DNA of 60,013 bases from assembly GCA_005877775.1 (NCBI GenBank), contig VBOJ01000050.1, positions 1-60,013 on the forward strand, in the 5' to 3' direction. The notes beneath the pieces were generated by a model, which worked only from the letters and a program-made list of their open reading frames with translations, did not search any database and was not told the DNA's origin. The translations under genes and the position numbers were made by a program. Below are positions 12,890 to 53,332 of this stretch, in pieces. The stretch comes from Nitrospirota bacterium. Lineage in GTDB: Bacteria; Nitrospirota; Nitrospiria; Nitrospirales; Nitrospiraceae. Each line of letters begins with the position of its first letter. The stretch's first letter is position 1.

Positions 12890-12973
12890 CGTATAGCCAA
12901 TAGCGAACAGCTCTGAACCCGAAGTTGTGCAGGCCCTGCTGGCTCTTCGCTATCAGCTCTCGAGGAGGACATC

Positions 12974-13681
12974 ATGAAAGAATTCTGGGAGAAAGCCCTG
13001 TTGGGACCGCTGGAGACGTTGAGCAGGAGTGTGCTCTCGGTACTGCCGAATGTGCTCGCCATGTCTATTATCTTGTTGGTTGGGCTCGCGGCTGCCTGGT
13101 CGATCGGTCTCGTGGTGGAGCGGCTGCTGCGCGTGATCGGATTAGACCATCTCACCAACCGGCTCGGAGTGAATGCTGCCTTGACGCGTGGCGGAGTCAA
13201 GGCCGATCCCTCCCATCTGGTCGGCCGAACGGTCTATTGGCTGGTGGTGGCATTTGCGGTCCTGGCTGGGTTGGGGGCACTGAATCTCCAACCGCTCAAC
13301 CAGTTTGCCCAGTCCTTTCTGGCCTACCTTCCGCGCCTGTTCACCGCCACGCTGATTCTGGTGGCCGGCTACCTGCTCTCGAACTTCGTCTCGCAGGCCG
13401 TCCTGATTGCCGCGGTCAATGCGGGCATTCCGCCCGCACGGCTTGTGGCAGCCTGCTCACGATGGGGCGTTCAACTTGTCGCAGTGGCCATGGCCCTGGA
13501 GCAACTCAGTATCGCGCAGAACATTGTGGTGGTGGGGTTTGGAATCATGTTCGGCGGTATCGTCATGGCTGCGGCGATCGCGTTCGGGCTGGGCGCGAAG
13601 GATCTGGCCAAGGAGTTCCTCGAGCAACGGCTCAGCAATAAATCTCGAGATCGCGCTCCCGATGATCTGCGGCATCTCTGA
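12974..13681 (+). CDS. membrane protein with repeated 'conserved TM helix' segments (mechanosensitive-channel-associated type)
   Basis: 235 aa with about five hydrophobic helices of a repeated pattern. Confidence 0.6.
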   Translation: MKEFWEKALLGPLETLSRSVLSVLPNVLAMSIILLVGLAAAWSIGLVVERLLRVIGLDHLTNRLGVNAALTRGGVKADPSHLVGRTVYWLVVAFAVLAGLGALNLQPLNQFAQSFLAYLPRLFTATLILVAGYLLSNFVSQAVLIAAVNAGIPPARLVAACSRWGVQLVAVAMALEQLSIAQNIVVVGFGIMFGGIVMAAAIAFGLGAKDLAKEFLEQRLSNKSRDRAPDDLRHL

Positions 13682-13689
13682 AGTGAGAG

Positions 13690-13929
13690 GTGGATAACAT
13701 GGCTGCAAGGAGAAAGCACCCGACCGATCACATGCGGAGTCGCCCTCCCGATCCACATCGCTCTGAAGAGTGGTTGGGAGGCGAGGCGCATGTGCGTTTT
13801 CAGCGAGGGCGGAGTTGGCGCGACCTGTTTCAAAGCCATCGAAAAGGTATGGCCGGCTTGGCCTTGGCCTTTCTGGTCGGGATCGCAGTCGGGACCGGCG
13901 TAAGCATCCTGACCAATCACAGACGGTAG
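13690..13929 (+). CDS. possible small protein with a C-terminal TM helix
   Basis: 79-aa ORF ending in GLALAFLVGIAVGTGVSIL. No clear RBS. Weak call. Confidence 0.25.
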   Translation: MDNMAARRKHPTDHMRSRPPDPHRSEEWLGGEAHVRFQRGRSWRDLFQSHRKGMAGLALAFLVGIAVGTGVSILTNHRR

Positions 13930-30872: not shown

Positions 30873-31256
30873 GTGAGCGGTGCTGAATTGCTCCTTGACT
30901 ATTTGTCCCGGTATTTCCCGGTTCTATTGTTCATCCTGATTGCGATGGGGTTCGGCGTGGTGACGTTGCTTGTCAGTTATCTGGTGCACCCTAAGTTCCC
31001 GGAGACGGAGAAGCTTAGCCCCTACGAATGCGGCAGCGAACCGTTCTCCGACGCGCGCATGCCGTTTCCCGTTCGGTATTACATCTTTGCCATGTTGTTT
31101 GTCATCTTCGACATCGAGGTCATCTTCCTTTATCCGTGGGCCGTGGTCTTCGATAAGATCGGCCTCATCGGACTGGTCGAGATGTTGGTCTTCATCGGGC
31201 TGTTTCTGGTGGCCTACGTCTACGCTTGGAAGAAGGGGGCGCTGGAGTGGGATTAA
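30873..31256 (+). CDS. nuoA: NADH-quinone oxidoreductase subunit A
   Basis: PYECG motif and 3 TM helices. GTG 30873 was chosen because it carries the same GGGTTTT-start context as nuoB, nuoC and nuoD. The ORF could start at TTG 30840. Confidence 0.8.
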   Translation: MSGAELLLDYLSRYFPVLLFILIAMGFGVVTLLVSYLVHPKFPETEKLSPYECGSEPFSDARMPFPVRYYIFAMLFVIFDIEVIFLYPWAVVFDKIGLIGLVEMLVFIGLFLVAYVYAWKKGALEWD

Positions 31257-31261
31257 ACGGA

Positions 31262-31413
31262 GAAGAGCCGATGGCATATGGCCGGAGGACAAGAGCTGAT
31301 GGCGTATGGCTAATGGCGAATGACCGGAGAGTTCCACTTCTTGCCATAAGCTATAAGCTCTTCCGCCCAGGCTATCGGCCGTTAGCCATCAGCTATAAGC
31401 TCTTGGGGTTTTT
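31262..31413. repeat. heptad-phased nested inverted repeat (AGAGCYG ATGGCNN / GCCATMA GCTATAA GCTCT)
   Basis: The whole nuoA-nuoB spacer reads in one 7-nt register, and its left and right halves are imperfect reverse complements. Confidence 0.85.
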
Positions 31414-31932
31414 ATGGGACTGATACAGATCGGACGGCATGAAAAGGACGGGGAACTGGATATCATCACCACGTCGCTGGAAAAGGTCGTCAACTGGGCG
31501 AGGAAAGGCTCCTTGTGGCCTATGACGTTCGGCTTGGCCTGCTGCGCCATTGAAATGATCGCGGCGGTCTCGTCGCGCTATGACATGGACCGGTACGGGG
31601 CCGGCGTGTTCAGGGCCTCCCCTCGCCAATCAGACTTGATGATTGTAGCCGGCACGGTCTGCCGGCGGATGGCTCCCGTCATCAGGAAGATCTACGATCA
31701 GATGCCCGAGCCCAAGTACGTCATCGCCATGGGCTCGTGCGCGACGTCCGGTAACATCTACGACAGCTACAGCGTGGTGCAGGGAGTGGACCGCTTCGTG
31801 CCAGTGGACATCTACGTGCCGGGGTGCCCCCCAACCCCCGAGGCGCTGTTCGACGGCATCTTGAAGTTGCAAGAGCGGATCATGCAGAAGCGGGTGTTCG
31901 TCAAACAGCCTGAGCAAGTGAAAAACGCGTGA
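31414..31932 (+). CDS. nuoB: NADH-quinone oxidoreductase subunit B
   Basis: [14 protein letters not shown] and CPP cluster N2 motifs. Confidence 0.95.
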
Positions 31933-31959
31933 AGGCCTAGTTCGGAAGTTTTGAATTGA

Positions 31960-31999
31960 GCTCACAACTCAGCACTCATCACTTAGCACTGGTTTTTGA
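31960..31999. repeat. heptad repeat ACTCAGC ACTCATC ACTTAGC ACTGGTT
   Basis: Four to five 7-nt units immediately upstream of the nuoC ATG. Confidence 0.7.
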
Positions 32000-32497
32000 A
32001 TGCATCCAATAGCCCAACGCCTCCAGCGGGAATTCCCTGGGGGTTTCGTCAAGTCTGTTGAATGGCGCGGCGATTTGGCCGTGACCGTGCGTCGCGAGAC
32101 AATGCACGACGTGGCTGGGTTTCTCCATGATGATCCCGACATGGATTTCGATTACATCGTGCACGTCAGTTCCGTGGATTGGCCTGATGACGAGGAGCGG
32201 TTTGAGGTCGTCTATGAATTCTATTCGATCCGCAAACGCCATCGCATCAGGCTCAAGGCCCGTGTGCCCGAATCGGATTGCGAAGTCACCTCGCTGACGG
32301 ACCTCTGGAAAGGCGCCGATTTCATGGAGCGCGAGGTCTATGACATGATGGGCATCCGGTTCCGCAATCATCCAGACCTGCGCCGCATTCTCATGCCGGA
32401 TGACTATGATGAGGGCTACCCATTGAGAAAGGATTTTCCCCTGCGGGGCAAGGGGTGGCGGGACACGTTTGAGTTCCTGAACGAAACGAGGCCGTAA
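32000..32497 (+). CDS. nuoC: NADH-quinone oxidoreductase subunit C
   Basis: 165 aa with ERE.YDM.GI.F..HPDLRRIL, typical of NuoC. Confidence 0.9.
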   Translation: MHPIAQRLQREFPGGFVKSVEWRGDLAVTVRRETMHDVAGFLHDDPDMDFDYIVHVSSVDWPDDEERFEVVYEFYSIRKRHRIRLKARVPESDCEVTSLTDLWKGADFMEREVYDMMGIRFRNHPDLRRILMPDDYDEGYPLRKDFPLRGKGWRDTFEFLNETRP

Positions 32498-32500
32498 TGC

Positions 32501-32595
32501 CTCATCAGTGATGAGTCCTGAGGAATGAGTATTTGGGACGCATTGGGCGTTTCTCAACACAGATAACGCATCACGCATAACGAATCACGGGTTTT
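32501..32595. repeat. heptad repeat element (AGTGATG AGTCCTG AGGAATG ... ATAACGC ATCACGC ATAACGA ATCACGG)
   Basis: The nuoC-nuoD spacer stays in a single 7-nt register from 32507 to 32590. Confidence 0.75.
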
Positions 32596-33870
32596 ATGCA
32601 GCCGATCGAAGACCAGCGCAGCAACGCCTATGAAGACCAGCGGAGCACCGTTTATAAGGTGGACCCTGCTCATCCGGAGAGTTCGACCCTGCCGACCCTT
32701 CGGACTGAGGAGTTGCTCCTCAACATGGGCCCGCAGCACCCCAGCACTCACGGCGTCTTGAAAGTAATTCTGGAACTGGAAGGAGAGCGGATTGTCAAGG
32801 CCACGCCGGTCATGGGATTTCTGCATCGAGGCGTAGAGAAGTTGGCGGAAGATGGCACCTACCATCAGTTCATCCCCCACACGGACCGGCTGGATTATGT
32901 CTGCGCGATGTACAACAACTTCGCCTATTGTCGCGCGGTCGAGAAGCTGATGAACATTACAGTGCCGGAGCGGGCTGAGTACCTGCGCACCATTGTGGCG
33001 GAGGTCCAGCGGATCATCGGCCATCAGTTCTGGTTGGGGACGCAAGCGCTGGATATCGGCGCGATGACCGTGTTCTTCTACGCGTTCCGGGACCGTGAGA
33101 TCCTGCTGGACTGGTTCGACGAGTTGTGCGGTGCGCGCTTGACCACGAGCTGGTACCGGATCGGCGGCGTGGAACGGGATTTGACGCCGTCACTGACAGA
33201 GAAGCTCCGACGGTTCCTTGACTACTTTCCGCCCAAGATTGATGAGTACGTGGTCTTTCTCGAAAAGAACCGGATCTGGCTTGCCCGCACCAAGGGGGTA
33301 GCGGTGATCTCAGCCGAAGACGCGGTCAGCTTCGGTCTTAGCGGTCCCACGCTACGTGGCTCCGGCGTGGATTACGATCTGCGGAAGTCTGAGGCCTACG
33401 CGGCCTATCCCCGTTGCGAATTCAGCGTGCCCGTAGGCAAGAACGGCGACACCTACGACCGATACTGGATCCGAGTCCAGGAGATGCGAGAGAGTGTGAA
33501 GATTATCACGCAGTGCCTGGACCAGATGCCGGCAGAGGGATCGATCATGGCCGATGTACCGAGCGTGACCCTTCCTCCGAAGGACCGCGTGTTCACGAAC
33601 TTGGACTCCATGATTCAGCAGTTCAAACTCTTCTCGCAGGGATTCGACGCGCCGCGCGGCGAGATTTACTGCGGCACGGAAGCCCATAAAGGCGAACTGG
33701 GCTTTTACATCGTCAGTGCCGGGGGCGGCAAGCCATACCGCCTGAAGATTCGAGCTCCCTCGTTCATTCACATGGGGGCGTTTGACCACATGTCGCGGGG
33801 GTATATGATCGCGGACGCCGTGACGATCTTCGGGACCTACGATATTGTCATGGGCGAATGCGACCGGTGA
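32596..33870 (+). CDS. nuoD: NADH-quinone oxidoreductase subunit D
   Basis: LNMGPQHPSTHGVLK and HRG.EKL motifs. The N-terminal extension contains a 24-nt tandem duplication. Confidence 0.92.
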   Translation: MQPIEDQRSNAYEDQRSTVYKVDPAHPESSTLPTLRTEELLLNMGPQHPSTHGVLKVILELEGERIVKATPVMGFLHRGVEKLAEDGTYHQFIPHTDRLDYVCAMYNNFAYCRAVEKLMNITVPERAEYLRTIVAEVQRIIGHQFWLGTQALDIGAMTVFFYAFRDREILLDWFDELCGARLTTSWYRIGGVERDLTPSLTEKLRRFLDYFPPKIDEYVVFLEKNRIWLARTKGVAVISAEDAVSFGLSGPTLRGSGVDYDLRKSEAYAAYPRCEFSVPVGKNGDTYDRYWIRVQEMRESVKIITQCLDQMPAEGSIMADVPSVTLPPKDRVFTNLDSMIQQFKLFSQGFDAPRGEIYCGTEAHKGELGFYIVSAGGGKPYRLKIRAPSFIHMGAFDHMSRGYMIADAVTIFGTYDIVMGECDR

Positions 33871-33874
33871 AATG

Positions 33875-33958
33875 GTGAGGCGTGAGGAGTAAGGCGTGAG
33901 GGGTGTGGGGAGCCCGTTGGGATTTCGCCTAACTCCTCACTCCTTACGCCTAACGGAG
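33875..33958. repeat. heptad inverted repeat (GTGAGGC GTGAGGA GTAAGGC GTGAGGG GTGTGGG ... TTCGCCT AACTCCT CACTCCT TACGCCT)
   Basis: nuoD-nuoG spacer. The arms are about 80% complementary and 49 nt (7x7) apart, in the same register. Confidence 0.85.
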
Positions 33959-33966
33959 AAAAAAGA

Positions 33967-36675
33967 ATGGCTCTGAAACCAGCGACGAACCCTGACGTCG
34001 AAGCGGCGACGATCGAGCTGTCCCTTGACGGCCGGATCGTGACGGCTAAAGACGGGGTCTCGCTCTACGACGTGATTGCCAGCACGGGCAACATCGTGCC
34101 GGCCATGTGTTACCACTATACGTTTGACCCCTTCGGCTCCTGCGGCGTCTGTCTAGTCATGGTAGAGGGGAAAAAGGCGCCGGTTCGCTCCTGCACCGCG
34201 AAAGCCACGGCCGGCATGGTGGTGCGCACCGAGGGGGACGACCTGTTCCAGGCCAGAAAAAAGGCGGTCGAGAAACATCTGTCCGTCCACCCGCTGGATT
34301 GTCCGGTCTGCGACGCAGACGGCCATTGCGAGTTGCAGGACATGGCCTTCCAGCACCAGGTGACCACCCTGGCCAACGCCAAGCAAAAGCTGATTCCGGA
34401 GGACACCCGGAGCCTCGTCCTGGATTTCAACATGAACCGCTGCATCGCCTGTGGCGAGTGCATCAACGTATGCAAAGACGTGCTGATGATTGATGCCCTT
34501 CAATTCATGAAGAAGGACGGCTTCACCCAGGTCGTGGCCAAGGGCGATGTCGCGCTTTCCTGTGAGTTTTGCGGCGACTGCTTGGCGGTCTGCCCGGTCG
34601 GTGCGATCACGAACAAGTATTCCAAGTATCTGTACAAGCCTTGGCAGCTCAAAAAGACCACGACAACCTGCAACTACTGCGGCGACGGCTGCCAGATGTA
34701 CATCGAAACCAAGGACAACGAAGTGGTCCGTGTTACCTCTCCCCTGTCCTGGAAGAACAAGTGGGGGGACCGAGCCGAGACGGCAAAGGGGCATGGCGGC
34801 ATCTGTGTGCGAGGGCGATTCGGGTTCCAATACATCGACAGCAAGGCGCGCCTCCGTCAACCGCTGGTGCGCCGTGACGGGAATCTCGTCGAGACCCCTT
34901 GGTTGGAGACGATCCACACTGTGGTCGAGCGGCTGGCCGCCATCAAGGCCCAACACGGCCCCGAGGCAATTGGCGGGCTGATCACGGCCCGGTGCAGCAA
35001 CGAGGAACTCTACCTGTTCCAGAAGTTCATGCGCGCGGCGATCGGCACCAATCAGCTTGACAGCAGCGCCCGTTACGGACACCTAAATTTCGTCCACGCG
35101 GTCCAGCATGCGTTGGGCATCGGCCGGATGATGAATGATTGGGAGGACATCACCAAGGCTAAGACTATCCTCCTTGTCGGAACCAATATTACCGAAACCA
35201 ACCCGCTAACCGCCGTTCGAGTGAAAGAGGCGATCCGCGTCTATAAGTCGCAGGTGATCGTTGTGGACTCCGCCCAGACCAACATCGCCACGCTTGCATC
35301 GCATCCAATGCTGGTGGCGCCGGGGACCGAGGGGCTGTTCATCCAGGGTCTGGTGAAATCGGTGCTTGAGCAGGACCTCGTGGATGAAGAAGCCACGAGT
35401 AAGCACCCGCAAGCGTTCACTGCGCTCAAGCAGGCGGCCTCTAGGGTCCCACTTGACGTGATCGCTGCGCACACCGGTGTGCCGGTCGAGCAGATTCATC
35501 AGGCCGCTGCCATCTTCGCGGAGGCGCCACGTGCGATCATCCTATGCGGCGAGGGGATTGTGCGCCGGACCGGTGGATACAGGCATGTTCTGAACCTGGT
35601 GGACCTGGCCTGGATCACCGGGAAGCTGGGGCGGCCTGGCTGCGGCGTGAATACAATCACCGAAGAACCCAACGAGCAGGGCGCCGCGGACATGGGCGCG
35701 CTGCCGGAATGTTTCCCAGGCCAGGCTCGGTTCGACGATGCGGGAGCGCGCGAGAAGTTTGAGAAGGCCTGGGGTGCTGCGCTGCCAGCGGCGGGCAGTG
35801 GGGCGTCTCTCATGGAGATGCTCAAGCGTTGCCGGAGCGGGCACATCAAGGCGCTGTACGTGATCGGGGAGAACCCGCTCGCCACGCTTCCCTCGTCGGT
35901 CGGAGTCCGAGCCGCTCTGGAGAACCTTGAGCTGTTGATCTGCCAGGATCCGTTTCTGACCGAGACCGCCCAACTGGCCCACATCGTCCTGCCGGCTTGC
36001 ACCTATGCCGAAAAGGACGGCACGTTCACGAACCTCGAGGGGAAGGTGCTGCGTATCCGGCAGACCATGGATCCCATCGGGGAGAGTCTGCCTGACTGGC
36101 ACATCATGACCGCCATCGCCAACGGACTCGGCTATGAGCTGCCGTACGAATCTGCTCAGGACATCCAGAACGAGATCATGAAACTCCTGCCCGGCTACTA
36201 CAACCTGGGACAGCCTCGGAAGATCTCGCCGAAACCGGAGTCGTATCTCGCGAATGGCTACGCCGCGGAGGTGAGGAATCGGTATCGCAGCGATCTCAAG
36301 CGGAAGCCGGCGAGCGGGGGAACCGCTCGGCGTTCGTTCACTCTGCTGATGGGTCAGGTGCTCTACCACTCCGGCAAGCTCTCCACGCAGGCCTCCGGAT
36401 TGATCAAAATCTTGCCAAACACCGGTCGGCTCCACATGAACGCGAGAGATCTCGAGCAGATGGGACTGGGGGAAGGCGCGCGGGTCCGGGTCACCTCGCC
36501 GAAGGGATCGCTGGAGCTTGGCGTGCAGGCTGACCTGACGGTCCTGCCCGGCTCGTGCTTCTTCCCGGAGCACTTCAACGAGCCTCAGGTGAAGGACTTG
36601 ATGCCGGTCGAGGTGGATGCCGACACCGGCGTGCCCTATTTCAAACTGGCCGAGGTGACGATCGAAAAGCTGTAA
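33967..36675 (+). CDS. nuoG: NADH-quinone oxidoreductase subunit G-like Fe-S / molybdopterin-fold protein
   Basis: 902 aa. N-terminal 2Fe-2S Cys pattern, HPLDCPVCDADGHCELQ, 4Fe-4S motifs, and a molybdopterin oxidoreductase-like body. Confidence 0.88.
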   Translation: MALKPATNPDVEAATIELSLDGRIVTAKDGVSLYDVIASTGNIVPAMCYHYTFDPFGSCGVCLVMVEGKKAPVRSCTAKATAGMVVRTEGDDLFQARKKAVEKHLSVHPLDCPVCDADGHCELQDMAFQHQVTTLANAKQKLIPEDTRSLVLDFNMNRCIACGECINVCKDVLMIDALQFMKKDGFTQVVAKGDVALSCEFCGDCLAVCPVGAITNKYSKYLYKPWQLKKTTTTCNYCGDGCQMYIETKDNEVVRVTSPLSWKNKWGDRAETAKGHGGICVRGRFGFQYIDSKARLRQPLVRRDGNLVETPWLETIHTVVERLAAIKAQHGPEAIGGLITARCSNEELYLFQKFMRAAIGTNQLDSSARYGHLNFVHAVQHALGIGRMMNDWEDITKAKTILLVGTNITETNPLTAVRVKEAIRVYKSQVIVVDSAQTNIATLASHPMLVAPGTEGLFIQGLVKSVLEQDLVDEEATSKHPQAFTALKQAASRVPLDVIAAHTGVPVEQIHQAAAIFAEAPRAIILCGEGIVRRTGGYRHVLNLVDLAWITGKLGRPGCGVNTITEEPNEQGAADMGALPECFPGQARFDDAGAREKFEKAWGAALPAAGSGASLMEMLKRCRSGHIKALYVIGENPLATLPSSVGVRAALENLELLICQDPFLTETAQLAHIVLPACTYAEKDGTFTNLEGKVLRIRQTMDPIGESLPDWHIMTAIANGLGYELPYESAQDIQNEIMKLLPGYYNLGQPRKISPKPESYLANGYAAEVRNRYRSDLKRKPASGGTARRSFTLLMGQVLYHSGKLSTQASGLIKILPNTGRLHMNARDLEQMGLGEGARVRVTSPKGSLELGVQADLTVLPGSCFFPEHFNEPQVKDLMPVEVDADTGVPYFKLAEVTIEKL

Positions 36676-36688
36676 CACCCCCACCCAT

Positions 36689-36714
36689 CCCTCCCCCTGT
36701 GTGAAGGGGGAGGG
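36689..36714 (+). other. perfect 10-bp C/G-tract hairpin in the nuoG-nuoI spacer
   Basis: CCCTCCCCCT-gtgtga-AGGGGGAGGG with no U-tract after it. Confidence 0.8.
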
Positions 36715-36743
36715 ACAGGGAGGGACCTGAGCGGGAGAGCCTC

Positions 36744-37334
36744 ATGAGCGTGAGCGTGTTGGCAAAACAACTGTTGGACGCGGTGATGTTCCGCGAGATC
36801 TGGAACGCGATGAAGGTCACCTTCACACACATGTTCCATCGCCCCATCACTTTTCAATATCCGCGAGAAGAGCGGACGATTCCTGACACCCACCGAGGGG
36901 CCCTCGCGTTGCTGCGTTACGATGACGGGGCTGAGCGGTGCGTGGGTTGCGATCTGTGCGAGGTCGCCTGCCCCTCCCACTGCATCAAAGTCGTCAGCAC
37001 CGAAGATGAGTCCCTTCCCCTGCGACGGTACGCGAGCGAGTTCTATATCGACATAACCAAGTGCGTGTTCTGCGGCTATTGTGTGGAGGCATGCCCTGTG
37101 AATGCGCTGGCGATGACGAAGATGTACGAATACTCAACCCATGACAAACGTACGCTCCTGTTCGATAAGAAACGGCTCTACGAGATCGGCGAACGATTCA
37201 TCGAGGATGCCAAGAAATACCTGTACGCGCACAATCAGGAGAAAAACGATCAGATGTTCCACGACTACCGCTACTTCTTCCCCCAGTCGGTTCTCAAACC
37301 AACACAACCGTTGCCACCCAAACACCTGACCTGA
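36744..37334 (+). CDS. nuoI: NADH-quinone oxidoreductase subunit I
   Basis: Two ferredoxin motifs, CVGCDLCEVACP and CVFCGYCVEACP. Confidence 0.92.
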   Translation: MSVSVLAKQLLDAVMFREIWNAMKVTFTHMFHRPITFQYPREERTIPDTHRGALALLRYDDGAERCVGCDLCEVACPSHCIKVVSTEDESLPLRRYASEFYIDITKCVFCGYCVEACPVNALAMTKMYEYSTHDKRTLLFDKKRLYEIGERFIEDAKKYLYAHNQEKNDQMFHDYRYFFPQSVLKPTQPLPPKHLT

Positions 37335-37346
37335 GCCGTACCCCCT

Positions 37347-37874
37347 ATGGTCCTTGCCTTCTTCGCTTACTGCTCTCTGGTCAGCATTGTGGCCGGGTTC
37401 CTCACGGTTGCCCTGAAAAACCCGGTGCACTGCGGAATTGCGCTCCTGACTCTCCTGCTGCATGTGGCCGGCCTGTTCGTCCTCTTGAACGCGGAATTCC
37501 TGGCCATGGTCCAGATCATCGTCTATGCGGGTGCGATCCTGGTCCTGTACCTGTTCGTGTTGATGCTGCTCAATTTGAAGACCGACGAACGGTACTTGCA
37601 TTCAAGGTTCGCGTTGATTCTGTTCGCAGCCGTGGCAATTTGCGGCGAGCTCCTCCTCTTGATCGTGGGATCTCCTTTCGGCGGGTTGAAGGGTGACGCG
37701 CCCACGGAGGTGGTCCTCAAGGACGGAGCCAGTTATGCGATCGGCATCAAGATGTTCAGCGACTACCTGCTACAGTTCGAGATCATCGGCGTCTTCCTGA
37801 CGGGCGCAATCGTTGGGGCGATTGTGTTGGCCAAGACACCGACGTCCGCCGACATTGATAACCGTGAGGGGTAA
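37347..37874 (+). CDS. nuoJ: NADH-quinone oxidoreductase subunit J
   Basis: 175 aa, 5 TM helices, and VQIIVYAGAILVLYLFV typical of NuoJ. Confidence 0.9.
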   Translation: MVLAFFAYCSLVSIVAGFLTVALKNPVHCGIALLTLLLHVAGLFVLLNAEFLAMVQIIVYAGAILVLYLFVLMLLNLKTDERYLHSRFALILFAAVAICGELLLLIVGSPFGGLKGDAPTEVVLKDGASYAIGIKMFSDYLLQFEIIGVFLTGAIVGAIVLAKTPTSADIDNREG

Positions 37875-37947
37875 GGCGTTAGGCATGTGGCGCGAAGGCG
37901 GACAGGGTGTCGTGACCCCTTACGCCTCACCCCTTACGCCTTACGAG
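37864..37947. repeat. heptad inverted repeat (GTGAGGG GTAAGGC GTTAGGC ... TTACGCC TCACCCC TTACGCC TTACGAG)
   Basis: nuoJ-nuoK spacer. The left arm contains the nuoJ TAA stop. Confidence 0.85.
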
Positions 37948-37952
37948 TCGTT

Positions 37953-38255
37953 ATGGTCCCGTTAAGCGCATACGTGGCACTCAGCGCGACCCTGTTCGCG
38001 ACCGGGCTGATCGGCGTGCTGATCCGCCGGAACTTCATCATCGTCTTGATGGCGGTAGAGATCATGCTGAATGCGGCCAATATCAATCTGGTGGCCTTTT
38101 CCCACTACTTGGAATCCATGACCGGTCAGATCGTGGCACTCTTCGTCATCGCCATCGCGGGCGGGGAGGCGGCCGTCGGGTTGGCCATTATCATCGTAGT
38201 GTTCCGCGGGAAAATCTCAACGAACGTCGACGAGATCAACCTCTTGAAGTGGTAA
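37953..38255 (+). CDS. nuoK: NADH-quinone oxidoreductase subunit K
   Basis: 100 aa starting at MVPLSAYV, with the MAVEIMLNAANINLVAF motif. The ORF extends to 37887 only by reading through the repeat. Confidence 0.9.
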   Translation: MVPLSAYVALSATLFATGLIGVLIRRNFIIVLMAVEIMLNAANINLVAFSHYLESMTGQIVALFVIAIAGGEAAVGLAIIIVVFRGKISTNVDEINLLKW

Positions 38256-38256
38256 C

Positions 38257-40251
38257 GTGTTCGATCTGCTTGTCATTCTGATCCCCGCCCTCCCGCTGAC
38301 AGCCGTCCTCTTGAATGGGCTGTTGGGGACTCGCTACTCGCATGAGTTCGCACATCGGCTGGGCTGGGGCTCGGTCGCGGGGTCCTTCCTCTGCTCGATC
38401 GTCGTGTTCGCCGATACGCTCAAGACCGGCGCCGTGCAGGAAGTGACGGTCTATACTTGGATCTTCGGCGGCGACCTGACGATCAATTTGGCCTTCCTCA
38501 TCGACCCTCTCACCTGCATCATGCTGCTGGTGGTCACCGGCGTCGGGTTCCTGATCCATCTGTACTCGGTCGGGTACATGCATGGCGAGCGTGGCTTCAC
38601 GCGCTTTTTCACATACATGAACCTGTTCATGGTGTCCATGCTGCTCCTGGTGATGGGAAACAATTATCTCGTCCTCTTCATCGGATGGGAAGGCGTGGGG
38701 CTCTGCTCCTACCTCCTGATCGGATACTATTACGACCGCGTCTCGGCCGCCAAAGCCGCCACGAAAGCGTTCGTGGTCAACCGAATCGGTGACGCCGGAT
38801 TTCTCCTGGCGATCTTTCTGGTCTTCGTGAACTTCAACACACTGGACTATACCCAGGTGTTTGCGCAAGCCGGCAAGCTTTCACCGGAGATGGCGACGGC
38901 AATCGCCATCTGCCTGCTGATCGGCGCGATCGGGAAATCAGCCCAGATCCCCCTGTACACCTGGCTGCCGGATGCGATGGAAGGCCCCACCCCGGTCAGC
39001 GCGCTGATTCACGCTGCCACCATGGTCACGGCCGGCGTCTATATGATCGTCCGAAACCATGTGATCTACGACATGTCGCCGGTGGCGATGACCACGGTGG
39101 CCTGGGTCGGCGGCCTGACCGCGCTGTTTGCCGCGACGATCGGGCTCGTCCAGAACGACATCAAACGCGTACTGGCCTATTCTACCGTGAGCCAGCTCGG
39201 CTACATGTTCCTCGCCTGCGGGATCGGCGCATACACGGCCGCGATCTTTCATCTGATGACCCACGCGTTCTTCAAGGCTCTGCTCTTCCTCTCGGCCGGC
39301 TCCGTGATCCACGCCCTGTCGGGCGAACAGGACATCCGGAACATGGGCGGGCTGAAGGCCAAGCTCCCCTGGACCCACAGCCTGTTCCTGGTGGGCACCT
39401 TGGCCATTGCCGGCATCTTCCCGCTGGCCGGGTTCTGGAGCAAGGACGAAATCATGGCGCATGCCTTCACGCATCGTTACTACGCGCTCTATGCGATGGC
39501 CGTACTCGGCGCGTTCCTGACGTCCTTCTACATGTTTCGACTCACGTACCTGACGTTCTACGGGCAGTCGCGAGTCGACCACCACGTCGCCGAGCACATC
39601 CATGAATCCCCCCCGGTCATGACCGGACCGCTGGTGGTCTTGGCAGTCCTTTCCGTGATTGGTGGCTTCCCCGGGGTGCCGCCTGAGGAAGGGTGGTTCC
39701 ATGATTTCCTCCGTCCGGCCGCTGCCGGGGCCGGCGAAGTGCACTCGGCCGGACTGGGACTCGTCGTGGCACTGATGGGGGCGGCGACCGTGATCGCCCT
39801 GATGGGCTGGGGGCTGGCACACTACCTCTACGGCATCCGTCCCGAGGCGGCGCAGGAGTGGGTTGCCGTTGCGCCCCACGCCTACCAGACGCTCCTCAAT
39901 AAATACTACGTCGACGAGCTCTATGACTTGCTGGTGGTCGAGCCGACCAAACGGCTTGGCATGGTCTGTGACTGGTTCGATCGGACCGTGATCGATGGCA
40001 TCGTGCTGGGCGTCTGGCGCGTAACCCAATCAGGCTCGGCGCTCAGCACAGGATTCGAGAAATATGCGATCTATGGACTCATTAATGTCGCGGGATACGC
40101 CAACCATCTGGCCGCGCGATCCTGGCGGAAACTGCAGAGTGGAATGGTGCACCATTACGCCGCCATGATTGTGGCAGGGCTGTTCATTCTGGTCCATCTG
40201 ATCCTGGCCTGGTGGACCGGTTCTACCGTGTTCGGCCTGGCCTTGCGATAG
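38257..40251 (+). CDS. nuoL: NADH-quinone oxidoreductase subunit L (long form, 664 aa)
   Basis: GTG start. WEGVGLCSYLLIGYYY and VLAYSTVSQLGYMF motifs. Confidence 0.92.
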   Translation: MFDLLVILIPALPLTAVLLNGLLGTRYSHEFAHRLGWGSVAGSFLCSIVVFADTLKTGAVQEVTVYTWIFGGDLTINLAFLIDPLTCIMLLVVTGVGFLIHLYSVGYMHGERGFTRFFTYMNLFMVSMLLLVMGNNYLVLFIGWEGVGLCSYLLIGYYYDRVSAAKAATKAFVVNRIGDAGFLLAIFLVFVNFNTLDYTQVFAQAGKLSPEMATAIAICLLIGAIGKSAQIPLYTWLPDAMEGPTPVSALIHAATMVTAGVYMIVRNHVIYDMSPVAMTTVAWVGGLTALFAATIGLVQNDIKRVLAYSTVSQLGYMFLACGIGAYTAAIFHLMTHAFFKALLFLSAGSVIHALSGEQDIRNMGGLKAKLPWTHSLFLVGTLAIAGIFPLAGFWSKDEIMAHAFTHRYYALYAMAVLGAFLTSFYMFRLTYLTFYGQSRVDHHVAEHIHESPPVMTGPLVVLAVLSVIGGFPGVPPEEGWFHDFLRPAAAGAGEVHSAGLGLVVALMGAATVIALMGWGLAHYLYGIRPEAAQEWVAVAPHAYQTLLNKYYVDELYDLLVVEPTKRLGMVCDWFDRTVIDGIVLGVWRVTQSGSALSTGFEKYAIYGLINVAGYANHLAARSWRKLQSGMVHHYAAMIVAGLFILVHLILAWWTGSTVFGLALR

Positions 40252-40274
40252 CCGGAGAATGGAGTGAGCGCGTC

Positions 40275-41834
40275 ATGCTAGAGGAATTTGCCTTCGGGTT
40301 TCCGATCCTGTCGCTGTTGCTCTTCCTCCCCTTGCTCGGAGCCCTCTCCTTGTGGCTGCTGGATGACGAGGATCTGATCAAGAACGCGGCGCTGGCCGTC
40401 TCGGCGTTGGAACTCGTCCTCGCGATCATCGTCTTGCTGCGCTTTGTACCGGACTCCGCCGCGATGCAATTCTCCGAGCGACTGCGGTGGATCCCGCCGC
40501 TCGGGATCAGCTACCACCTCGCGGTGGACGGCATCAGCGTCCTGTTCGTCGGCCTCACCGCGTTGCTCACTACCCTGATCGTGGTGCATTCCTGTGATAC
40601 GGTTCGACAGCAGATCAAACTGTATTTCATGACCTTGCTGGCACTTGAGACCACCATCATCGGCATCTTCGTCTCGATCGATCTGATCCTCTTCTTCGTC
40701 TTCTGGGAGCTGATGCTGATCCCCAGCTATTTCCTGATCAAGCTGTGGGGCGGCGGAGTCGAACGGCAGTACGCCGCTCTCAAGTACGTCCTGTACACCC
40801 TGTTGGGCAGTGTGTTCATGCTGGTCGGCATCGCGCTCCTGAACCTGAACTACCATGACTGGGCGGTCACACACCACATTGAGCCCTCCTACTCCTTCGA
40901 CTTCCTCGAGCTTCTGACGGTCCCAATTCCCAGGGACCAACAGATCCTGATCTTCTGGCTGATCTTCGCGGGGCTGGCGTTCAAGGCTCCAATCGTTCCG
41001 TTCCACACGTGGCTCCCTGACGTCCTGCTGGAGGGCCCGATTGGGATGGCGGTTGTCCTGGCTGGGATCAAGCTCGGCACCTACGGCTTCATCCGGTTCA
41101 GCCTGCCTCTCTTGCCGGACGCCTCAAAGAGCGAGGGAGTGGTGACGATCATGGCGACGTTGGCCTTGATCGCAATCGTCTATGGAGCGATCGTGGCTCT
41201 GATCCAACCGGATTTTCGCCGACTGCTGGCGTTCAGCAGCATCAGCCATCTGGGCTTCGTCGTGCTGGGCCTGTTCGCATTGAACTTCCAGGGCCTGCAG
41301 GGAAGCTTGCTGACCATGATCAACCTCGGCTTCAGCACCGCCGGACTGTTCTTTATGGCCGGGTTTCTCTACGTAAGGCGGCACAACACCCATCTGTCAG
41401 CCTTCGGCGGGCTCGCCCGACAAGTCCCGCTGCTGGCGACGTTCTTGCTGATCATCGGACTCGCCTCGATCGGGCTTCCGGGTACCAATGGGTTCGTCGG
41501 AGAGTTTCTGATCCTGCTCGGCGCCTTCAAGGCGCATTGGGTCTATGGCGCGGTGGCGGTGACAGGCGTCATCTTGGGAGCAGCCTATTTCCTGTGGTAC
41601 TACGAGCGGGCCATGTTCGGGCCCTTGGCGCAGGGGCTGGGTCAGGCGATGGCGGACCTGCATGCCCGCGAACTGTTCATCGCCGTTTCGTTGTCCATTA
41701 TGATTTTCTGGATCGGACTCTACCCGGCTCCGTTCCTGCGGATCATGAATGGCTCGGTGCAGGCGCTCGTTCAACGGTTGGACCACGGGTCAGCGGGCGC
41801 AGTCCAGGCCACAAGGCTCATCTCGCGCGAGTAA
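40275..41834 (+). CDS. nuoM: NADH-quinone oxidoreductase subunit M
   Basis: LLAFSSISHLGFVVLG and an antiporter-like fold. Start at MLEEFAFG with a GGAG RBS. Confidence 0.9.
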   Translation: MLEEFAFGFPILSLLLFLPLLGALSLWLLDDEDLIKNAALAVSALELVLAIIVLLRFVPDSAAMQFSERLRWIPPLGISYHLAVDGISVLFVGLTALLTTLIVVHSCDTVRQQIKLYFMTLLALETTIIGIFVSIDLILFFVFWELMLIPSYFLIKLWGGGVERQYAALKYVLYTLLGSVFMLVGIALLNLNYHDWAVTHHIEPSYSFDFLELLTVPIPRDQQILIFWLIFAGLAFKAPIVPFHTWLPDVLLEGPIGMAVVLAGIKLGTYGFIRFSLPLLPDASKSEGVVTIMATLALIAIVYGAIVALIQPDFRRLLAFSSISHLGFVVLGLFALNFQGLQGSLLTMINLGFSTAGLFFMAGFLYVRRHNTHLSAFGGLARQVPLLATFLLIIGLASIGLPGTNGFVGEFLILLGAFKAHWVYGAVAVTGVILGAAYFLWYYERAMFGPLAQGLGQAMADLHARELFIAVSLSIMIFWIGLYPAPFLRIMNGSVQALVQRLDHGSAGAVQATRLISRE

Positions 41835-41840
41835 CATTCT

Positions 41841-43556
41841 ATGATCGACTCGACCTTGCTGATTATTTTGTTCGCGCCCTTCGCGGGTGCCACCACGTTA
41901 CTGTTCGTGTCGAATAAACAGGCGCTATTGGTCCGCGTGATTGCCGCAGCCGCGGCCGGCATGTCGCTGCTCACCTCCTTCTACATGTTCTTCGCATACG
42001 ATCCTGTGGAAGGTGGATTTCAGTTCGTGAAGCGGTTTGAGTGGTCGAAGGAGTTGGGCATCGCCTTCTACCTCGGCGTGGACGGCATCGGGGCACCGCT
42101 GGTACTGGCGTCTTCCATTCTATTGTTTGCCGGGATCTTCATCTCCTGGCACATCAAGGACCGCACCAAGGAGTTCTACATTTTCTTGCTGATCCTGGCT
42201 GCCGCCACCATGGGCGTGTTCATGTCCCTGGACCTGTTCTTCCTCTATTTCTTTTATGAGATGTCGGTCATCCCGATGTACCTCCTGCTGGGGGTCTGGG
42301 GCAGTCATACCAAGGGCTACCTGGACATGTCCGATCCCGAAGGCCTGAAAAAGCGCGATTCGGTCGGGTTCATCTTCAACTTTGCCGCCAACAGTAAGGA
42401 ATACGCCGCGATGAAGTTGACGCTGTTTCTGTCCGTCGGAGCGGTCGTCGCGCTCATGGGCATCCTGTTGATCTATAAGTTCTCGGGCCTCAACACGTTC
42501 GACATCCTGGTCCTGCGCGAGCAGGCCAAGTTCTCCGGCTCGCTGGCCACGATCATTTGGCTCCTGATCTTCTTTGGGTTCGCCTCGATCGCGCCGATCT
42601 GGCCTCTGCACTCCTGGTCGCCGGTCGGCCATGCCGCGGCGCCGGCCGCCACCAGCATGTTGCACGCGGGCGTCTTGATGAAGCTGGGACATTTTTCGAT
42701 CATCCGCATTGCCTTCGAGATTCTGCCCGAGACCACCCACGAGCTGATGCCGATTGCGGCCGTGCTCTGCATCTTCAATATATTTTACGGCGGATTTGTG
42801 GCCTATTACGCACGGGACACCAAGTATGTGATCGGGTACTCCAGCTCCAGCCATATGGGGTACGTCTTCCTCGGCATGGCGGCGCTGGACTACATCAGCC
42901 TGACCGGCGCGGTGCTCTACATGTTCGCGCATGCCTTGGCCACCGGCATGCTCTTCGCGATGGCCGGGTGGATCTATGACCAGACACACATGCGCGACAT
43001 TCCGTCGCTCGGAGGACTGGTCAACCGGATGCCGTTCGTCGCAGCCTGCTTCATGGTGGCCTGTATGGCCTCGATCGGCATGCCCGGCACGGTGAACTTC
43101 ATCGCCGAAGTCATGATCATCGTCGGAAGCTGGCACAAATATCCGTTCCAGGTTCTAGTGGCCGTGGCGGGGATCGCCCTCACGATGGCGTACCTGTTCA
43201 GAATGATGCGAGGGGTGTTCTACGGACCGATGGAGCACAAGTACAGCCATGCGCACGATGCGGTGGCGCCGGTGGATCGGCTCCCGCTGTTGCTCATGAT
43301 CGCCTGCAGCATCGCGTTTGGCATCTTCCCTGGACACTTCTACGACGTCATCCGGTCCGGGGTAGACCCTCTCGTGACCCGCATCACGGCGGTTGTGCCG
43401 CTGGCGGAGCAAACCCGTGAGGAGTTAGGGGTAAGGAGTGAGGCGAAGGTCTCCGGAGATCTGAGCCGGTCGCTGCTGCCCTCCGATAACCCCTCACCCC
43501 TCACGCCGACTCGACTGAGCTCGTCGCAGGCTCACGCCTCACGAGGATCGGAATGA
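41841..43556 (+). CDS. second NuoM-type antiporter-like subunit (571 aa)
   Basis: VIGYSSSSHMGYVFLG and FFYEMSVIPMYLLLG motifs. The last ~44 codons translate a heptad repeat element. Confidence 0.85.
   Translation: MIDSTLLIILFAPFAGATTLLFVSNKQALLVRVIAAAAAGMSLLTSFYMFFAYDPVEGGFQFVKRFEWSKELGIAFYLGVDGIGAPLVLASSILLFAGIFISWHIKDRTKEFYIFLLILAAATMGVFMSLDLFFLYFFYEMSVIPMYLLLGVWGSHTKGYLDMSDPEGLKKRDSVGFIFNFAANSKEYAAMKLTLFLSVGAVVALMGILLIYKFSGLNTFDILVLREQAKFSGSLATIIWLLIFFGFASIAPIWPLHSWSPVGHAAAPAATSMLHAGVLMKLGHFSIIRIAFEILPETTHELMPIAAVLCIFNIFYGGFVAYYARDTKYVIGYSSSSHMGYVFLGMAALDYISLTGAVLYMFAHALATGMLFAMAGWIYDQTHMRDIPSLGGLVNRMPFVAACFMVACMASIGMPGTVNFIAEVMIIVGSWHKYPFQVLVAVAGIALTMAYLFRMMRGVFYGPMEHKYSHAHDAVAPVDRLPLLLMIACSIAFGIFPGHFYDVIRSGVDPLVTRITAVVPLAEQTREELGVRSEAKVSGDLSRSLLPSDNPSPLTPTRLSSSQAHASRGSE
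43417..43543. repeat. heptad inverted repeat (GTGAGGA GTTAGGG GTAAGGA GTGAGGC ... TAACCCC TCACCCC TCACGCC) inside the 3' end of the second nuoM
   Basis: Same family and same 7-nt register (arms 70 nt apart) as the nuoD-G and nuoJ-K spacers. Confidence 0.8.
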
Positions 43557-45049
43557 CCTTCAACCTGACCCTGTCCGGCGCGGACCTGCTCCTGCTCGTC
43601 CCGGAGATGCTGCTGACGGTGTGGTTGTGCGTGGTCTTGATCGTGGACTTCGCCATGCCGCGCTTGCCGAAGGAACACCTGGCCTACCTCAGCGTGGGCG
43701 GACTGGGTGGTGTGCTGGCCTGCCTTCTGTGGTTCGATCTCGCCGGAATTTCCGGAAGCTTGTTTGCCCATATGTTCGTGGTGGACGGCTTGGCGCTGTT
43801 CTTCAAGATCTTTGTCGTGGGCGCCACGATCTTGGTGATTCTAGCCTCAGTGGATTATGTCCGGCGCTTCCGCTTCTTCAAGGGCGAGTACTATTTCCTG
43901 GTGCTCATGTCGGCCCTGGGCATGATGTTCATGGCATCGGCCAATGATCTCTTGTCGGTCTTCATCACGCTGGAATTCTCGACCTTCGGGTTCTATGTGC
44001 TGGTGGCCTATTTGCGCGATGACGCCGCCTCGAATGAAGCCGGGCTCAAATTTTTCATCCTGGGCGTGTTCGCGGCCGCGATCCTGGCGTACGGCATCAG
44101 CCTCGTCTATGGCGAGACCGGGAAACTCGTGTTTCAGGACATTGCGGCAGCCTCCTACACTCCTGGGCTCGTGATCGGGTTCCTGCTGATCTTCGCGGCG
44201 CTGGGGTTCAAGATCGGCGCGGTGCCGTTCCATTCCTGGATCCCCGACACCTATCACGGCGCGCCGACCCCTGTCACTGCCTTTCTCTCAATCGCGCCCA
44301 AGGGAGCGGCGTTCGCGATCCTGATCCGCATGTTCTTTGTGTCGCTGGTCGCCTTCAAGCCGGCTTGGGTCCTGCTCCTGGTCGGCGCCTCGATTCTCTC
44401 CATGACGTACGGCAACATCGTGGCCATCGCCCAGCGCAACATGAAGCGTCTGCTGGCCTACTCCGGCATCGCGCAGATCGGCAACATCCTCATCGGCTTA
44501 GCGGCCGGCACGAAGATGGGCGGCGACGCCATCCTGTTCTATTTGCTGACATACCTGTTCGCCAACCTCGGCGCCTTCGCGATCGTCATCGCCGTCGGGA
44601 ATCTGATTCGCAGCGACGAAATCGAGGACTACTCCGGCTTGAACCGGCGCTCTCCGTTCCTGGCCTTCGCCATGCTGGTCTTCTTATTGTCTCTGGCCGG
44701 CGTCCCGCCGCTGGCAGGCTTCATCGGCAAGCTCTACATCTTCGTGGCGGCGATCAAGGAAGGGCTCTACACCTTGATCATCGTGGGGCTGATCAACATC
44801 GTGATCTCGATGTACTACTATCTGGTCATCGTCAAGAAAATGTACATCAACGAGCCGACGGACCCCTCTCCGCTCAGCATTTCAGGACCGATGAAAGCTG
44901 TGGTCTACGTCGGGCTCGCCGGCACGTTGATCCTAGGGATTTATCCACAGCCGTTCATCGACTGGGTCGTGGCCGCCACCCTCATGTTTTCCAACGTTGT
45001 TGACTCCACCGCCTCGATGCGACCCACTGTCCCTCCTTTCGGAGGCTGA
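43553..45049 (+). CDS. nuoN: NADH-quinone oxidoreductase subunit N
   Basis: LLAYSGIAQIGNILIG motif, 498 aa. ATGA overlap with the preceding gene. Confidence 0.9.
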   Translation: MTFNLTLSGADLLLLVPEMLLTVWLCVVLIVDFAMPRLPKEHLAYLSVGGLGGVLACLLWFDLAGISGSLFAHMFVVDGLALFFKIFVVGATILVILASVDYVRRFRFFKGEYYFLVLMSALGMMFMASANDLLSVFITLEFSTFGFYVLVAYLRDDAASNEAGLKFFILGVFAAAILAYGISLVYGETGKLVFQDIAAASYTPGLVIGFLLIFAALGFKIGAVPFHSWIPDTYHGAPTPVTAFLSIAPKGAAFAILIRMFFVSLVAFKPAWVLLLVGASILSMTYGNIVAIAQRNMKRLLAYSGIAQIGNILIGLAAGTKMGGDAILFYLLTYLFANLGAFAIVIAVGNLIRSDEIEDYSGLNRRSPFLAFAMLVFLLSLAGVPPLAGFIGKLYIFVAAIKEGLYTLIIVGLINIVISMYYYLVIVKKMYINEPTDPSPLSISGPMKAVVYVGLAGTLILGIYPQPFIDWVVAATLMFSNVVDSTASMRPTVPPFGG

Positions 45050-52084: not shown

Positions 52085-52090
52085 TCAACA

Positions 52091-53222: not shown

Positions 53223-53263
53223 GCGAAAGGGGTGAGGCGTTAGGCGAAACCCCGGAAGAGAGG

Positions 53264-53306: not shown

Positions 53307-53332
53307 CTGGTGTTGGTCTTAGGCGAAACGGG

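Follow-up and report, generated by a model that had tools for sequence, protein, structure and literature searches.

A heptanucleotide-repeat palindrome between nuoA and nuoB of a Nitrospirota bacterium and its apparent relatives at other gene junctions

Contig VBOJ01000050.1 of a Nitrospirota bacterium, a soil Nitrospira, carries a nuo operon on the plus strand, in which nuoA (ending at 31256) and nuoB (ATG at 31414) are separated by a spacer of 157 nucleotides (nt; 31257-31413). Position numbers refer to the window, i.e. the whole stretch of 60,013 nt that was analysed, on the forward strand of the contig. The spacer holds degenerate 7-nt units arranged in two left arms (L1 and L2), a central loop and two right arms (R2 and R1), with a linker between the two arms of each side (Table 1). 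The arms are duplicated at distances of 28 nt (4 x 7) on the left and 42 nt (6 x 7) on the right; because both duplications are in phase and multiples of seven, the spacer stays in one register, and the 14 nt separating the left and right phased sets keep both sets in it. The nuoA stop codon occupies 31254-31256. An initial annotation of this DNA, which had given the spacer 157 nt and had read it in steps of seven from 31264, was correct in its coordinates as well as in its list of units. The element is situated inside the nuo operon and not at the end of a transcription unit, its right-hand edge lying 9 nt before the nuoB ATG.

The periodicity was compared with 2000 dinucleotide-preserving shuffles of the spacer. 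Identity at lag 7 amounts to 0.453 against 0.247 +/- 0.035 in the shuffles (z 5.9, 0/2000); lags 14, 21, 28 and 42 are likewise significant (z 4.2-6.3), and no shuffle attains 0.453 at any lag from 2 to 30. Tandem Repeats Finder reports a period of 7 with 3.4 copies and 82% match. Cut into sevens from 31264, the nine left units share A-T-G-G-C in columns 1-5 (6 to 8 of the nine per column), and G-C-Y-A-T is common to columns 3-7 of the nine right units. The information content per phase is 7.1 bits on the left and 7.0 bits on the right, against about 2 bits in shuffled sequence (z 9 each). Chance periodicity is thereby excluded, and the single register that had been proposed for the whole spacer is confirmed.

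Four long arm pairings, 75-82% complementary, can be drawn within the spacer. The minimum-energy RNA fold is nested, as the initial annotation had expected, with a predicted energy of -60.7 kcal/mol on the plus strand (z -2.9, beyond all 200 shuffles); the minus strand folds nearly as stably (-57.0 kcal/mol, z -2.7). An open reading frame at 31226-31423, earlier taken for a mere translation of the element, was considered as a small protein gene and rejected: close strains carry alleles of 104 and 140 nt (described below) in which its frame contains stops, and it is therefore non-coding. The Rfam gathering scan of the window found two tRNAs only, with no intron or tRNA at nuoA-nuoB, and an E-value scan of 31200-34000 gave no match with E up to 1. 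None of the heptad elements was flagged by a terminator consensus scan.

In related Nitrospira the operon is far more compact. The NuoB of the window shares 94-95% identity with the proteins of Nitrospira moscoviensis and of related genome bins. A 10-nt overlap of nuoA with nuoB (ATGGGACTGA) is seen in N. moscoviensis and in 15 further Nitrospira loci; in these relatives nuoB and nuoC are usually about 5-20 nt apart, and nuoC and nuoD overlap in most. The window lineage has heptad spacers of 157, 67 and 98 nt at these three junctions. The segment of the former overlap now flanks the element on both sides (GTGGGATTAA ... ATGGGACTGA), and a new GGGG stands 6-9 nt upstream of the nuoB ATG. Because of the 10-nt overlap in the relatives, the element is taken to be a lineage-specific insertion or expansion that split this ancestral arrangement. 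Other lineages have filled this junction in other ways: it is occupied by a 7-nt GGATTGT spacer in locus L018, by a CTGAGTG hairpin in L015, and in the Nitrospirales locus L031 (9862-9990) by a (GGATTNN)4 array, sharing its unit with L018 and flanked by a direct duplication of about 31 nt of the nuoA 3' end (GGCGAAAAGGCGCGTTGGAGTGGGAC... / GGAGAAAAGGCGCGTTGAAGTGGGAT...). Depending on the lineage, nuoJ-nuoK is either an ATGA overlap or a heptad hairpin of 70-94 nt, and the nuoD-nuoG spacer contains heptad hairpins of at least five unit types (flavours) among close relatives. N. moscoviensis NSP M-1, for example, carries a heptad hairpin at nuoJ-nuoK (L012, 16221-16326) as well as a looser one at nuoD-nuoG. 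Seeding of the arrays by a duplicated heptad around the upstream stop codon was tried as an origin and set aside as conjecture only, since the phases disagree by one position and no clean alignment is obtained; suggestive hints in its direction are GGATTGT beside TGGGATTGA (L018, L031) and GCTGA at nuoD ends.

The element is accompanied by further copies, which had been proposed as a search target and are indeed present in this genome as well as in relatives. Dispersal was assessed within the 60-kilobase (kb) window and in loci of about 20 kb from relatives. The window contains 15 arms resembling AAGAGCTGATGGC, where 2.1 would be expected. An nhmmer search with the spacer retrieves a second copy in the window (52088-52208; E 5e-17) and further ones on about 25 additional contigs, and several metagenome contigs contain two to three copies in a single contig. 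A metagenome scan with AAGAGCTNATNGCNNATNGC returned 120 stretches; about half of the 80 examined are true arrays of the nuoA-nuoB type, on contigs spanning 37-64% G+C. The doubled-arm layout is also seen again at unrelated loci: the linker of L102 is closely similar, and those of L091 and L142 are looser variants rich in A. No other observation argues as strongly that copies have spread from locus to locus. The nuoA-nuoB element is a member of a dispersed family of the form AAGAGCT-(NATRGCN)n - loop - (NGCYATN)n-AGCTCTT.

Comparison of close strains shows how variable the spacer is. Soil metagenome contigs encoding an identical NuoB have 92.6-99.9% DNA identity and belong to the same species. 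Contigs that are more than 99.5% identical to the window deviate from it nearly exclusively in this spacer: 43% of the aligned spacer sites differ against 0.27% elsewhere. Three spacer alleles of 104, 140 and 157 nt were found: strains more than 99.5% identical carry the 104- or the 157-nt allele, and the 140-nt allele is present in a strain of about 95% identity. The shortest forms one hairpin, the intermediate one has one left and two right arms, and the longest two left and two right arms, so that the alleles are told apart by the 28- and 42-nt arm duplications and by presence or absence of arms. Both ends are shared by the 104- and 157-nt alleles, and the 3' end, i.e. that of R1, is identical in all three. 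Variation also concerns the flavour: at nuoB-nuoC of the strain with about 95% identity, a GTGAGGC-type hairpin replaces the ACTCAGC array of the window. Outside the nuoA-nuoB spacer, the alignment of contig L002 with the window has only two gaps over 19 kb, namely a single base at 22647 and an in-frame coding indel in nuoM (12 nt, CTGATCTTCTGG, at 40947-40958, missing in L002). An apparent loss of the 3' half of nuoC and the nuoC-nuoD spacer in L001 (10907-11016) turned out to be a scaffold gap of 110 N and not a deletion.

Whether pairing between the arms is maintained by selection was addressed in three tests. For 19 heptad hairpins in nuo operons the sense strand has 11 G-U against 21 A-C oppositions, so no sense-strand G-U excess is seen among them; the sense-minus-antisense fold energy is +1.7 kcal/mol (p 0.35), i.e. 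the strands do not differ. In 17 members of the dispersed family, native arm pairs are no more complementary than swapped ones (-27.1 against -29.6 kcal/mol), and 99.4% of the arm permutations are more stable than the native pairs. Covariation between arms was found neither in these 17 members nor in orthologous nuoJ-nuoK spacers (covariation term +1.2). Five related Nitrospira were compared at nuoJ-nuoK: their left arms are conserved, and the right arm has been homogenised to a lineage-specific unit (CTTCACG, CCTCACG or TCTCACG) without a matching change on the left. The spacers of L016, L017, L023 and L028 (alignment A1) provide a clean case of concerted evolution in one arm. A polarity of the first variable position, noticed in paired family members, vanished once solo arms were included.

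These comparisons show that the left and right arms evolve independently, each behaving as its own tandem array. The potential to pair therefore exists because the unit core is shared and not because base pairs are maintained, and selection does not seem to act on the pairing as such. The lack of arm covariation, the homogenisation of right arms and the lack of a G-U bias on the sense strand therefore point to simple-repeat turnover at the DNA level rather than to a selected RNA. The structured, possibly regulatory RNA implied by the initial annotation is not borne out by arms without covariation and without a wobble signature; on present evidence no new regulatory RNA is revealed.

The 7-nt texture is not restricted to nuoA-nuoB either, contrary to the uniqueness that had been implied: a sliding lag-7 scan together with Tandem Repeats Finder detects it at nine further sites of the window, one of them weak (Table 1). 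At least eight additional heptad arrays or hairpins are counted in the window, six within the nuo operon. Control lags of 5, 8, 10 and 11 yield essentially no arrays. Of the 31 window spacers with a length of 40 nt or more, 7 hold strong arrays, and five of these 7 belong to the nuo operon; the five divergent (promoter-side) spacers hold none. About nine arrays are present in the 60 kb, all in intergenic spacers or at gene junctions. Units vary by site: NATGGCN at nuoA-nuoB and 52088, GTGAGGC at three nuo junctions and GCTGAGT/GTGATGA elsewhere. The usual anatomy consists of a purine-rich array starting 0-13 nt past the upstream stop, a loop, and an approximately complementary array that ends 6-22 nt before the start codon, a gap which in most copies leaves room for a Shine-Dalgarno site.

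Table 1. Features of the nuoA-nuoB spacer element and other heptad arrays in the window
Feature	Position	Strand	Remarks
nuoA stop codon TAA	31254-31256	+	Falls within the 10-nt nuoA-nuoB overlap of related Nitrospira
Outer left arm L1: AAGAGCC GATGGCA TATGGCC G	31263-31284	+	Copied as L2
Left linker GAGGAC, in register	31285-31290	+	Alike linkers in other family copies: L102; A-rich variants L091, L142
Inner left arm L2: AAGAGCT GATGGCG TATGGCT AATGGCG AATGACC G	31291-31326	+	Copy of L1, 28-nt displacement
Central loop GAGAGTTCCACTTCTT	31327-31342	+	14 nt between the phased sets hold both in register
Inner right arm R2: GCCATAAGCTATAAGCTCTT	31343-31362	+	Copied in the last 20 nt of R1
Right linker CCGCCCAG	31363-31370	+	
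Outer right arm R1: GCTATCGGCCGTTAGCCATCAGCTATAAGCTCTT	31371-31404	+	Last 20 nt are a copy of R2, 42-nt displacement
GGGGTTTTT: Shine-Dalgarno-like G run and U tract, from element to nuoB ATG	31405-31413	+	Conserved in all alleles
nuoB start codon	31414-31416	+	
nuoB-nuoC spacer: heptad array ACTCAGC/ACTCATC (reverse complement GCTGAGT)	31933-31999	+	Degenerate left arm
nuoC-nuoD spacer: heptad hairpin GTGATGA... / ...GCATCAC	32498-32595	+	Genes overlap in relatives
nuoD-nuoG spacer: GTGAGGC/GCCTCAC heptad hairpin	33871-33966	+	Strongest lag-7 signal of the window (0.79)
nuoJ-nuoK heptad hairpin GTGAGGG/GTAAGGC ... CCTTACG	37863-37952	+	nuoJ stop TAA (37872-37874) within array
GTGAGGA-type heptad hairpin	43413-43507	+	In 3' end of second called nuoM open reading frame (41841-43556)
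Second copy of AAGAGCT...AGCTCTT family	52088-52208	.	Between convergent genes; nhmmer E 5e-17 against nuoA-nuoB element
Heptad hairpin, GCTGAGT/GTGATGA type	3593-3708	-	Between two minus-strand genes
Weak degenerate array, AGCTCT/TAGCG type	12883-12962	+	Between two plus-strand genes
Solo GTGAGGC-type array	53211-53250	+	Without complementary partner; adjoins GC-rich hairpin, then T run

Our preferred interpretation, which we regard as reasonably probable, is that the nuoA-nuoB spacer is a DNA-level heptanucleotide-repeat palindrome of the dispersed family and belongs to a genome-wide class of intergenic palindromes composed of degenerate tandem heptads. Gene junctions would tolerate it, and its transcript would be a long, imperfect hairpin that bridges stop and start by coincidence. 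One arm would be a simple-sequence-repeat array and the other its approximate reverse complement. Such elements may arise and be remodelled in the DNA by slipped-strand mispairing in a 7-nt register, with the inverted copy of an arm being produced through strand or template switching, and would persist where they are harmless, i.e. at gene junctions. Co-transcribed in the nuo mRNA, the element could fold into a hairpin that begins 6 nt past the stop of nuoA and ends 9 nt ahead of the ATG of nuoB; this would bring stop and start close together and leave the new GGGG, a Shine-Dalgarno-like site, free. Probably because of this stop-to-start geometry the element is tolerated in an essential operon, and it may secondarily serve as a hairpin in mRNA stability or processing.

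Several observations fit less well with this interpretation. Neutral slippage explains neither of two regularities: the purine-rich arm is the 5' arm in 27 of 33 hairpins, and in 63 of 80 Nitrospira arrays, where 33% would be expected, a stop triplet (TGA, TAA or TAG) is part of the unit consensus when the purine-rich strand is read. Both counts are non-independent because they include both arms of some hairpins as well as homologous elements of related species. The overall consensus of the Nitrospira units reads T-G/A-A-R-N-S-G. As a conjecture, the bias towards stop triplets and purines might be due to survivorship, arrays at gene ends being tolerated only if translation stops at once (compare nuoJ, below); an equally conjectural option is seeding from stop-codon contexts. 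Unlike the outcome of pure slippage in situ, the composite layout and the AAGAGCT/AGCTCTT ends are conserved at unrelated loci, which hints that copies pass from one locus to another. In many Nitrospira lineages nuoJ-nuoK and nuoD-nuoG repeatedly carry heptad hairpins, and this could reflect a function. Finally, the allele lengths of 104, 140 and 157 nt are not multiples of seven apart, and the loops are too different to have changed recently in situ; instead of mutating rapidly, the alleles may therefore be of old origin and have been reassorted by recombination.

A rival explanation is a non-autonomous mobile element comparable to REPINs or MITEs, i.e. a palindromic cassette with AAGAGCT/AGCTCTT ends copied to new gene junctions by a transposase encoded elsewhere, in which the heptad texture would be a property of the cassette and not of local slippage. 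We consider this unlikely, although it has the dispersed family, its conserved ends and the L1-linker-L2...R2-linker-R1 layout at unrelated loci in its favour, along with the contigs that contain multiple copies and the replacement of flavours at one junction between 95%-identical strains and among close relatives. The 10-nt overlap duplicated on insertion and the duplication of about 31 nt of the nuoA 3' end around the GGATTNN array of L031 could likewise be read as traces of transposition; these flanking duplications are, however, long and variable, unlike target-site duplications of fixed size. Many flavours exist instead of one cassette, the arm duplications are exact multiples of seven, and right arms are homogenised in place in orthologous spacers. 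Furthermore, the ends carry neither the GTAG nor the CGTC tag that defines REPs, and no transposase was identified, though none was searched for. A selected intercistronic RNA hairpin, acting as an RNase III or RNase E site, as a 3'-end stabiliser or as a device coupling nuoA and nuoB translation, is in our estimate slightly less likely again. A predicted fold beyond all shuffles, its extent from exactly the stop to the Shine-Dalgarno site, the hairpins at most junctions of the operon with recurrence at nuoJ-nuoK and nuoD-nuoG in many Nitrospira, and the conservation of the outer stem ends and of GGGGTTTTT in all three alleles would all be expected of such a device. Compensatory changes are nonetheless lacking, the antisense strand folds about equally well with no G-U excess on the sense strand, close relatives manage without any spacer, and the same kind of element lies between convergent genes (52088-52208).

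Recognition of a short core in each 7-nt unit by a protein, on RNA or on DNA with the two arms forming a symmetric site, would explain why arms retain cores without retaining pairing, and why the core is conserved (ATGGC here, T-G/A-A-R in most other flavours) with two or three positions per unit left free. There is a precedent for spaced recognition in HutP, which reads UAG-N4 triplets on RNA. Arrays positioned just upstream of start codons, as for the TAACTGA repeats (PMC4679880), would also suit such a protein. We nevertheless regard it as very unlikely: cores differ between flavours within one genome, the flavour swaps between strains would alter the ligand, no candidate protein is known, and neither the gathering scan of the window nor the E-value scan of 31200-34000 gave an Rfam match. 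Least credible of all, to the point of being nearly dismissible, is the idea that an intrinsic terminator or attenuator separates nuoA from nuoB. The sequence of hairpin and TTTTT invites the comparison, and a T run follows the right arm at nuoA-nuoB, nuoB-nuoC and nuoC-nuoD; but the scan flagged none of these elements, the run abuts the ATG of an essential downstream gene without a promoter, and it is missing from other copies.

Heptad arrays are also observed beyond this lineage. Across 80 genome loci, arrays with lag-7 periodicity are patchy: they are frequent in the species of the window and in several other Nitrospira, absent from many others, and present in a Pyrinomonadaceae (AGTGACA hairpins), a Terriglobia and an Anaerolineales (GGTAATT) locus and some others. 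The nuo locus of the Pyrinomonadaceae (L085; Acidobacteriota) has highly regular AGTGACA/AGTGACG hairpins at 3793-3924, 7913-8140 and 13638-13808, which reach -60 kcal/mol and occupy the same stop-to-start position as in Nitrospira; the phenomenon is therefore not confined to that genus. The Terriglobia locus (L087, 2783-2927) contains two non-complementary heptad arrays in one spacer, (GGTAAAG)n followed by (TTAACTG/TGAACTG)n, the latter stopping 3 nt ahead of the ATG and resembling the TAACTGA repeats of Beggiatoaceae. One could go further and unite the heptad palindromes whose core is T-G/A-A-R in one class of elements that marks gene junctions across phyla and has a dedicated mechanism, a proposal that seems to us quite unlikely. 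It would cover Nitrospira, Pyrinomonadaceae and Anaerolineales, with units echoing those of cyanobacteria and Beggiatoaceae; the paired arrays of Terriglobia are not complementary. The mechanism could be an unknown insertion of palindromic repeat cassettes exactly at stop/start junctions, or a factor that reads the 7-nt core in the mRNA, ends stray translation in all three frames and passes ribosomes on to the following cistron. If so, the purine-first polarity and the enrichment in stop triplets would be functional signatures and not by-products.

The initial annotation knew of no description of such an arrangement, a claim that fails because convergent heptamer arrays and heptanucleotide stem-loops have already been published. 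Its likening of the element to cyanobacterial STRR repeats is apt; the unit sequences of the latter differ from those of Nitrospira. STRR of Calothrix PCC 7601 (cited in PMC4692102) are dispersed non-coding tandem heptanucleotides with several unit types per genome, as in the window, and are described as direct tandem arrays, unlike the nuoA-nuoB element and in another phylum. Closest in anatomy are the GGGAATC / GGGGA(C/T)T heptamers of Xanthomonas and Nostoc PCC 7120: Xanthomonas has 70-75 pairs of convergent heptamer arrays per genome, which are intergenic, capable of forming stem-loops and, when close strains are compared, of varying length (Rehm et al. 2015, PMC4692102). Its GGGAATC arrays are intergenic in 89-93% of cases, usually comprise about four units, are rare between divergent genes and have no function found (PMC4692102). 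The nuoA-nuoB element likewise has degenerate tandem 7-nt units in convergent arrays able to form stem-loops, one unit being present on opposite strands and facing itself, and the arrays of the window are mostly intergenic, typically of about four units, rare between divergent genes and without established function. Differences are that the Nitrospira units lack GGG tracts (no GGG run occurs in the NATGGCN units of the nuoA-nuoB element), so that G-quadruplexes are not expected, that several unrelated flavours occur per genome, that the nuoA-nuoB arms are doubled, and that the Nitrospira elements demonstrably split operon genes which ancestrally overlapped.

The second precedent is the P6b stem-loop of the tRNA-Leu(UAA) group I intron of Nostoc, which is built of TDNGATT or NNTGAGT units and, as related in PMC4476775 (citing Costa et al. 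2002), grows or shrinks by 7-nt units on either of its sides, forms side stem-loops through insertions and has repeatedly exchanged one motif class for another. Here too both sides of a hairpin are heptanucleotide arrays and the motif class is replaced; the GCTGAGT array of nuoB-nuoC (31967-31990) fits NNTGAGT, and GGATT arrays occur at other Nitrospira loci. The NATGGCN unit of nuoA-nuoB fits neither of the classes given there, and P6b resides inside a self-splicing intron and not between protein genes. A further parallel is the TAACTGA repeat, known from marine Beggiatoaceae, cyanobacteria and Bacteroidetes, whose arrays stand a short way upstream of start codons (MacGregor 2015, PMC4679880); they resemble our arrays in ending a few nt before the start, in containing stop triplets and in their patchy occurrence across phyla, and differ in being almost solely direct (169 direct sets, one indirect) and of a single unit sequence. 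REP, BIME and REPIN elements are abundant intergenic imperfect palindromes, often in composite inverted arrangement and transcribed with operons, for which roles in mRNA stability have been proposed (PMC3116915, PMC3733652). The Nitrospira elements share the imperfect intergenic palindrome and the composite inverted arrangement, whereas REPs are not made of tandem 7-nt units, carry GTAG or CGTC tags and depend on a RAYT transposase. More generally, heptamers are over-represented among longer bacterial simple repeats, an excess that has been ascribed tentatively to polymerase slippage (Mrazek 2007, as cited in PMC4679880 and PMC4692102). Geobacter metallireducens possesses families of four or five tandem heptanucleotides. 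We found no report of heptamer or REP-like repeats in Nitrospira in the searchable literature. The defining anatomy of the nuoA-nuoB element is thus shared with the convergent arrays of Xanthomonas and with P6b of Nostoc; distinct are its unit sequence, the absence of G tracts, the number of flavours per genome and the documented origin by an insertion that splits genes.

If the interpretation as a tolerated DNA-level palindrome holds, the core respiratory operon of a nitrite oxidiser would have been invaded at nearly every junction by fast-changing 7-nt palindromes, and overlapping, translationally coupled genes would have become pairs that are 70-160 nt of structured spacer apart. This would amount to an experiment of nature that shows how much structure an essential operon can bear between its cistrons, and would supply a hypervariable marker for typing soil Nitrospira strains. 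It would also extend the poorly understood excess of heptamer repeats in bacteria to new phyla, with the stop-triplet core and the purine-rich 5' arm as features in need of explanation.

Some further observations concern the genes next to the arrays. The last codons of nuoJ and its TAA (..CGT GAG GGG TAA, 37863-37874) come from the heptad array itself, and the C-terminus of NuoJ has therefore been rewritten in comparison with relatives. The second nuoM open reading frame as called (571 amino acids; a metagenome gene caller concurs) runs through the heptad hairpin at 43413-43507, because the only stop-free frame of the hairpin is the coding frame; this would give the protein a putative low-complexity tail of about 47 amino acids, ending in an ATGA overlap with nuoN (43413-43556). 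Another kind of element is found in the nuoG-nuoI spacer (36676-36743), where a very GC-rich, near-perfect hairpin (CCCTCCCCCTGTGTGAAGGGGGAGGG within CCCATCCC...GGGAGGG; -0.54 kcal/mol per nt) shows no 7-nt periodicity. Immediately after the solo GTGAGGC-type array, 3' of the gene ending at 53222, a GC-rich hairpin is followed by TTTTT (53251-53310; GGAAGGGCGGCCGC...GCCGCCCTTCGTGTTTTTCTGG), which looks like an intrinsic terminator. As a whole, the nuo operon (30945-45049) has no nuoE or nuoF between nuoD and the gene for a NuoG-like protein of 902 amino acids and includes two nuoM-like genes (40275-41834 and 41841-43556); we take it to resemble the '2M' type of complex I reported for Nitrospira.

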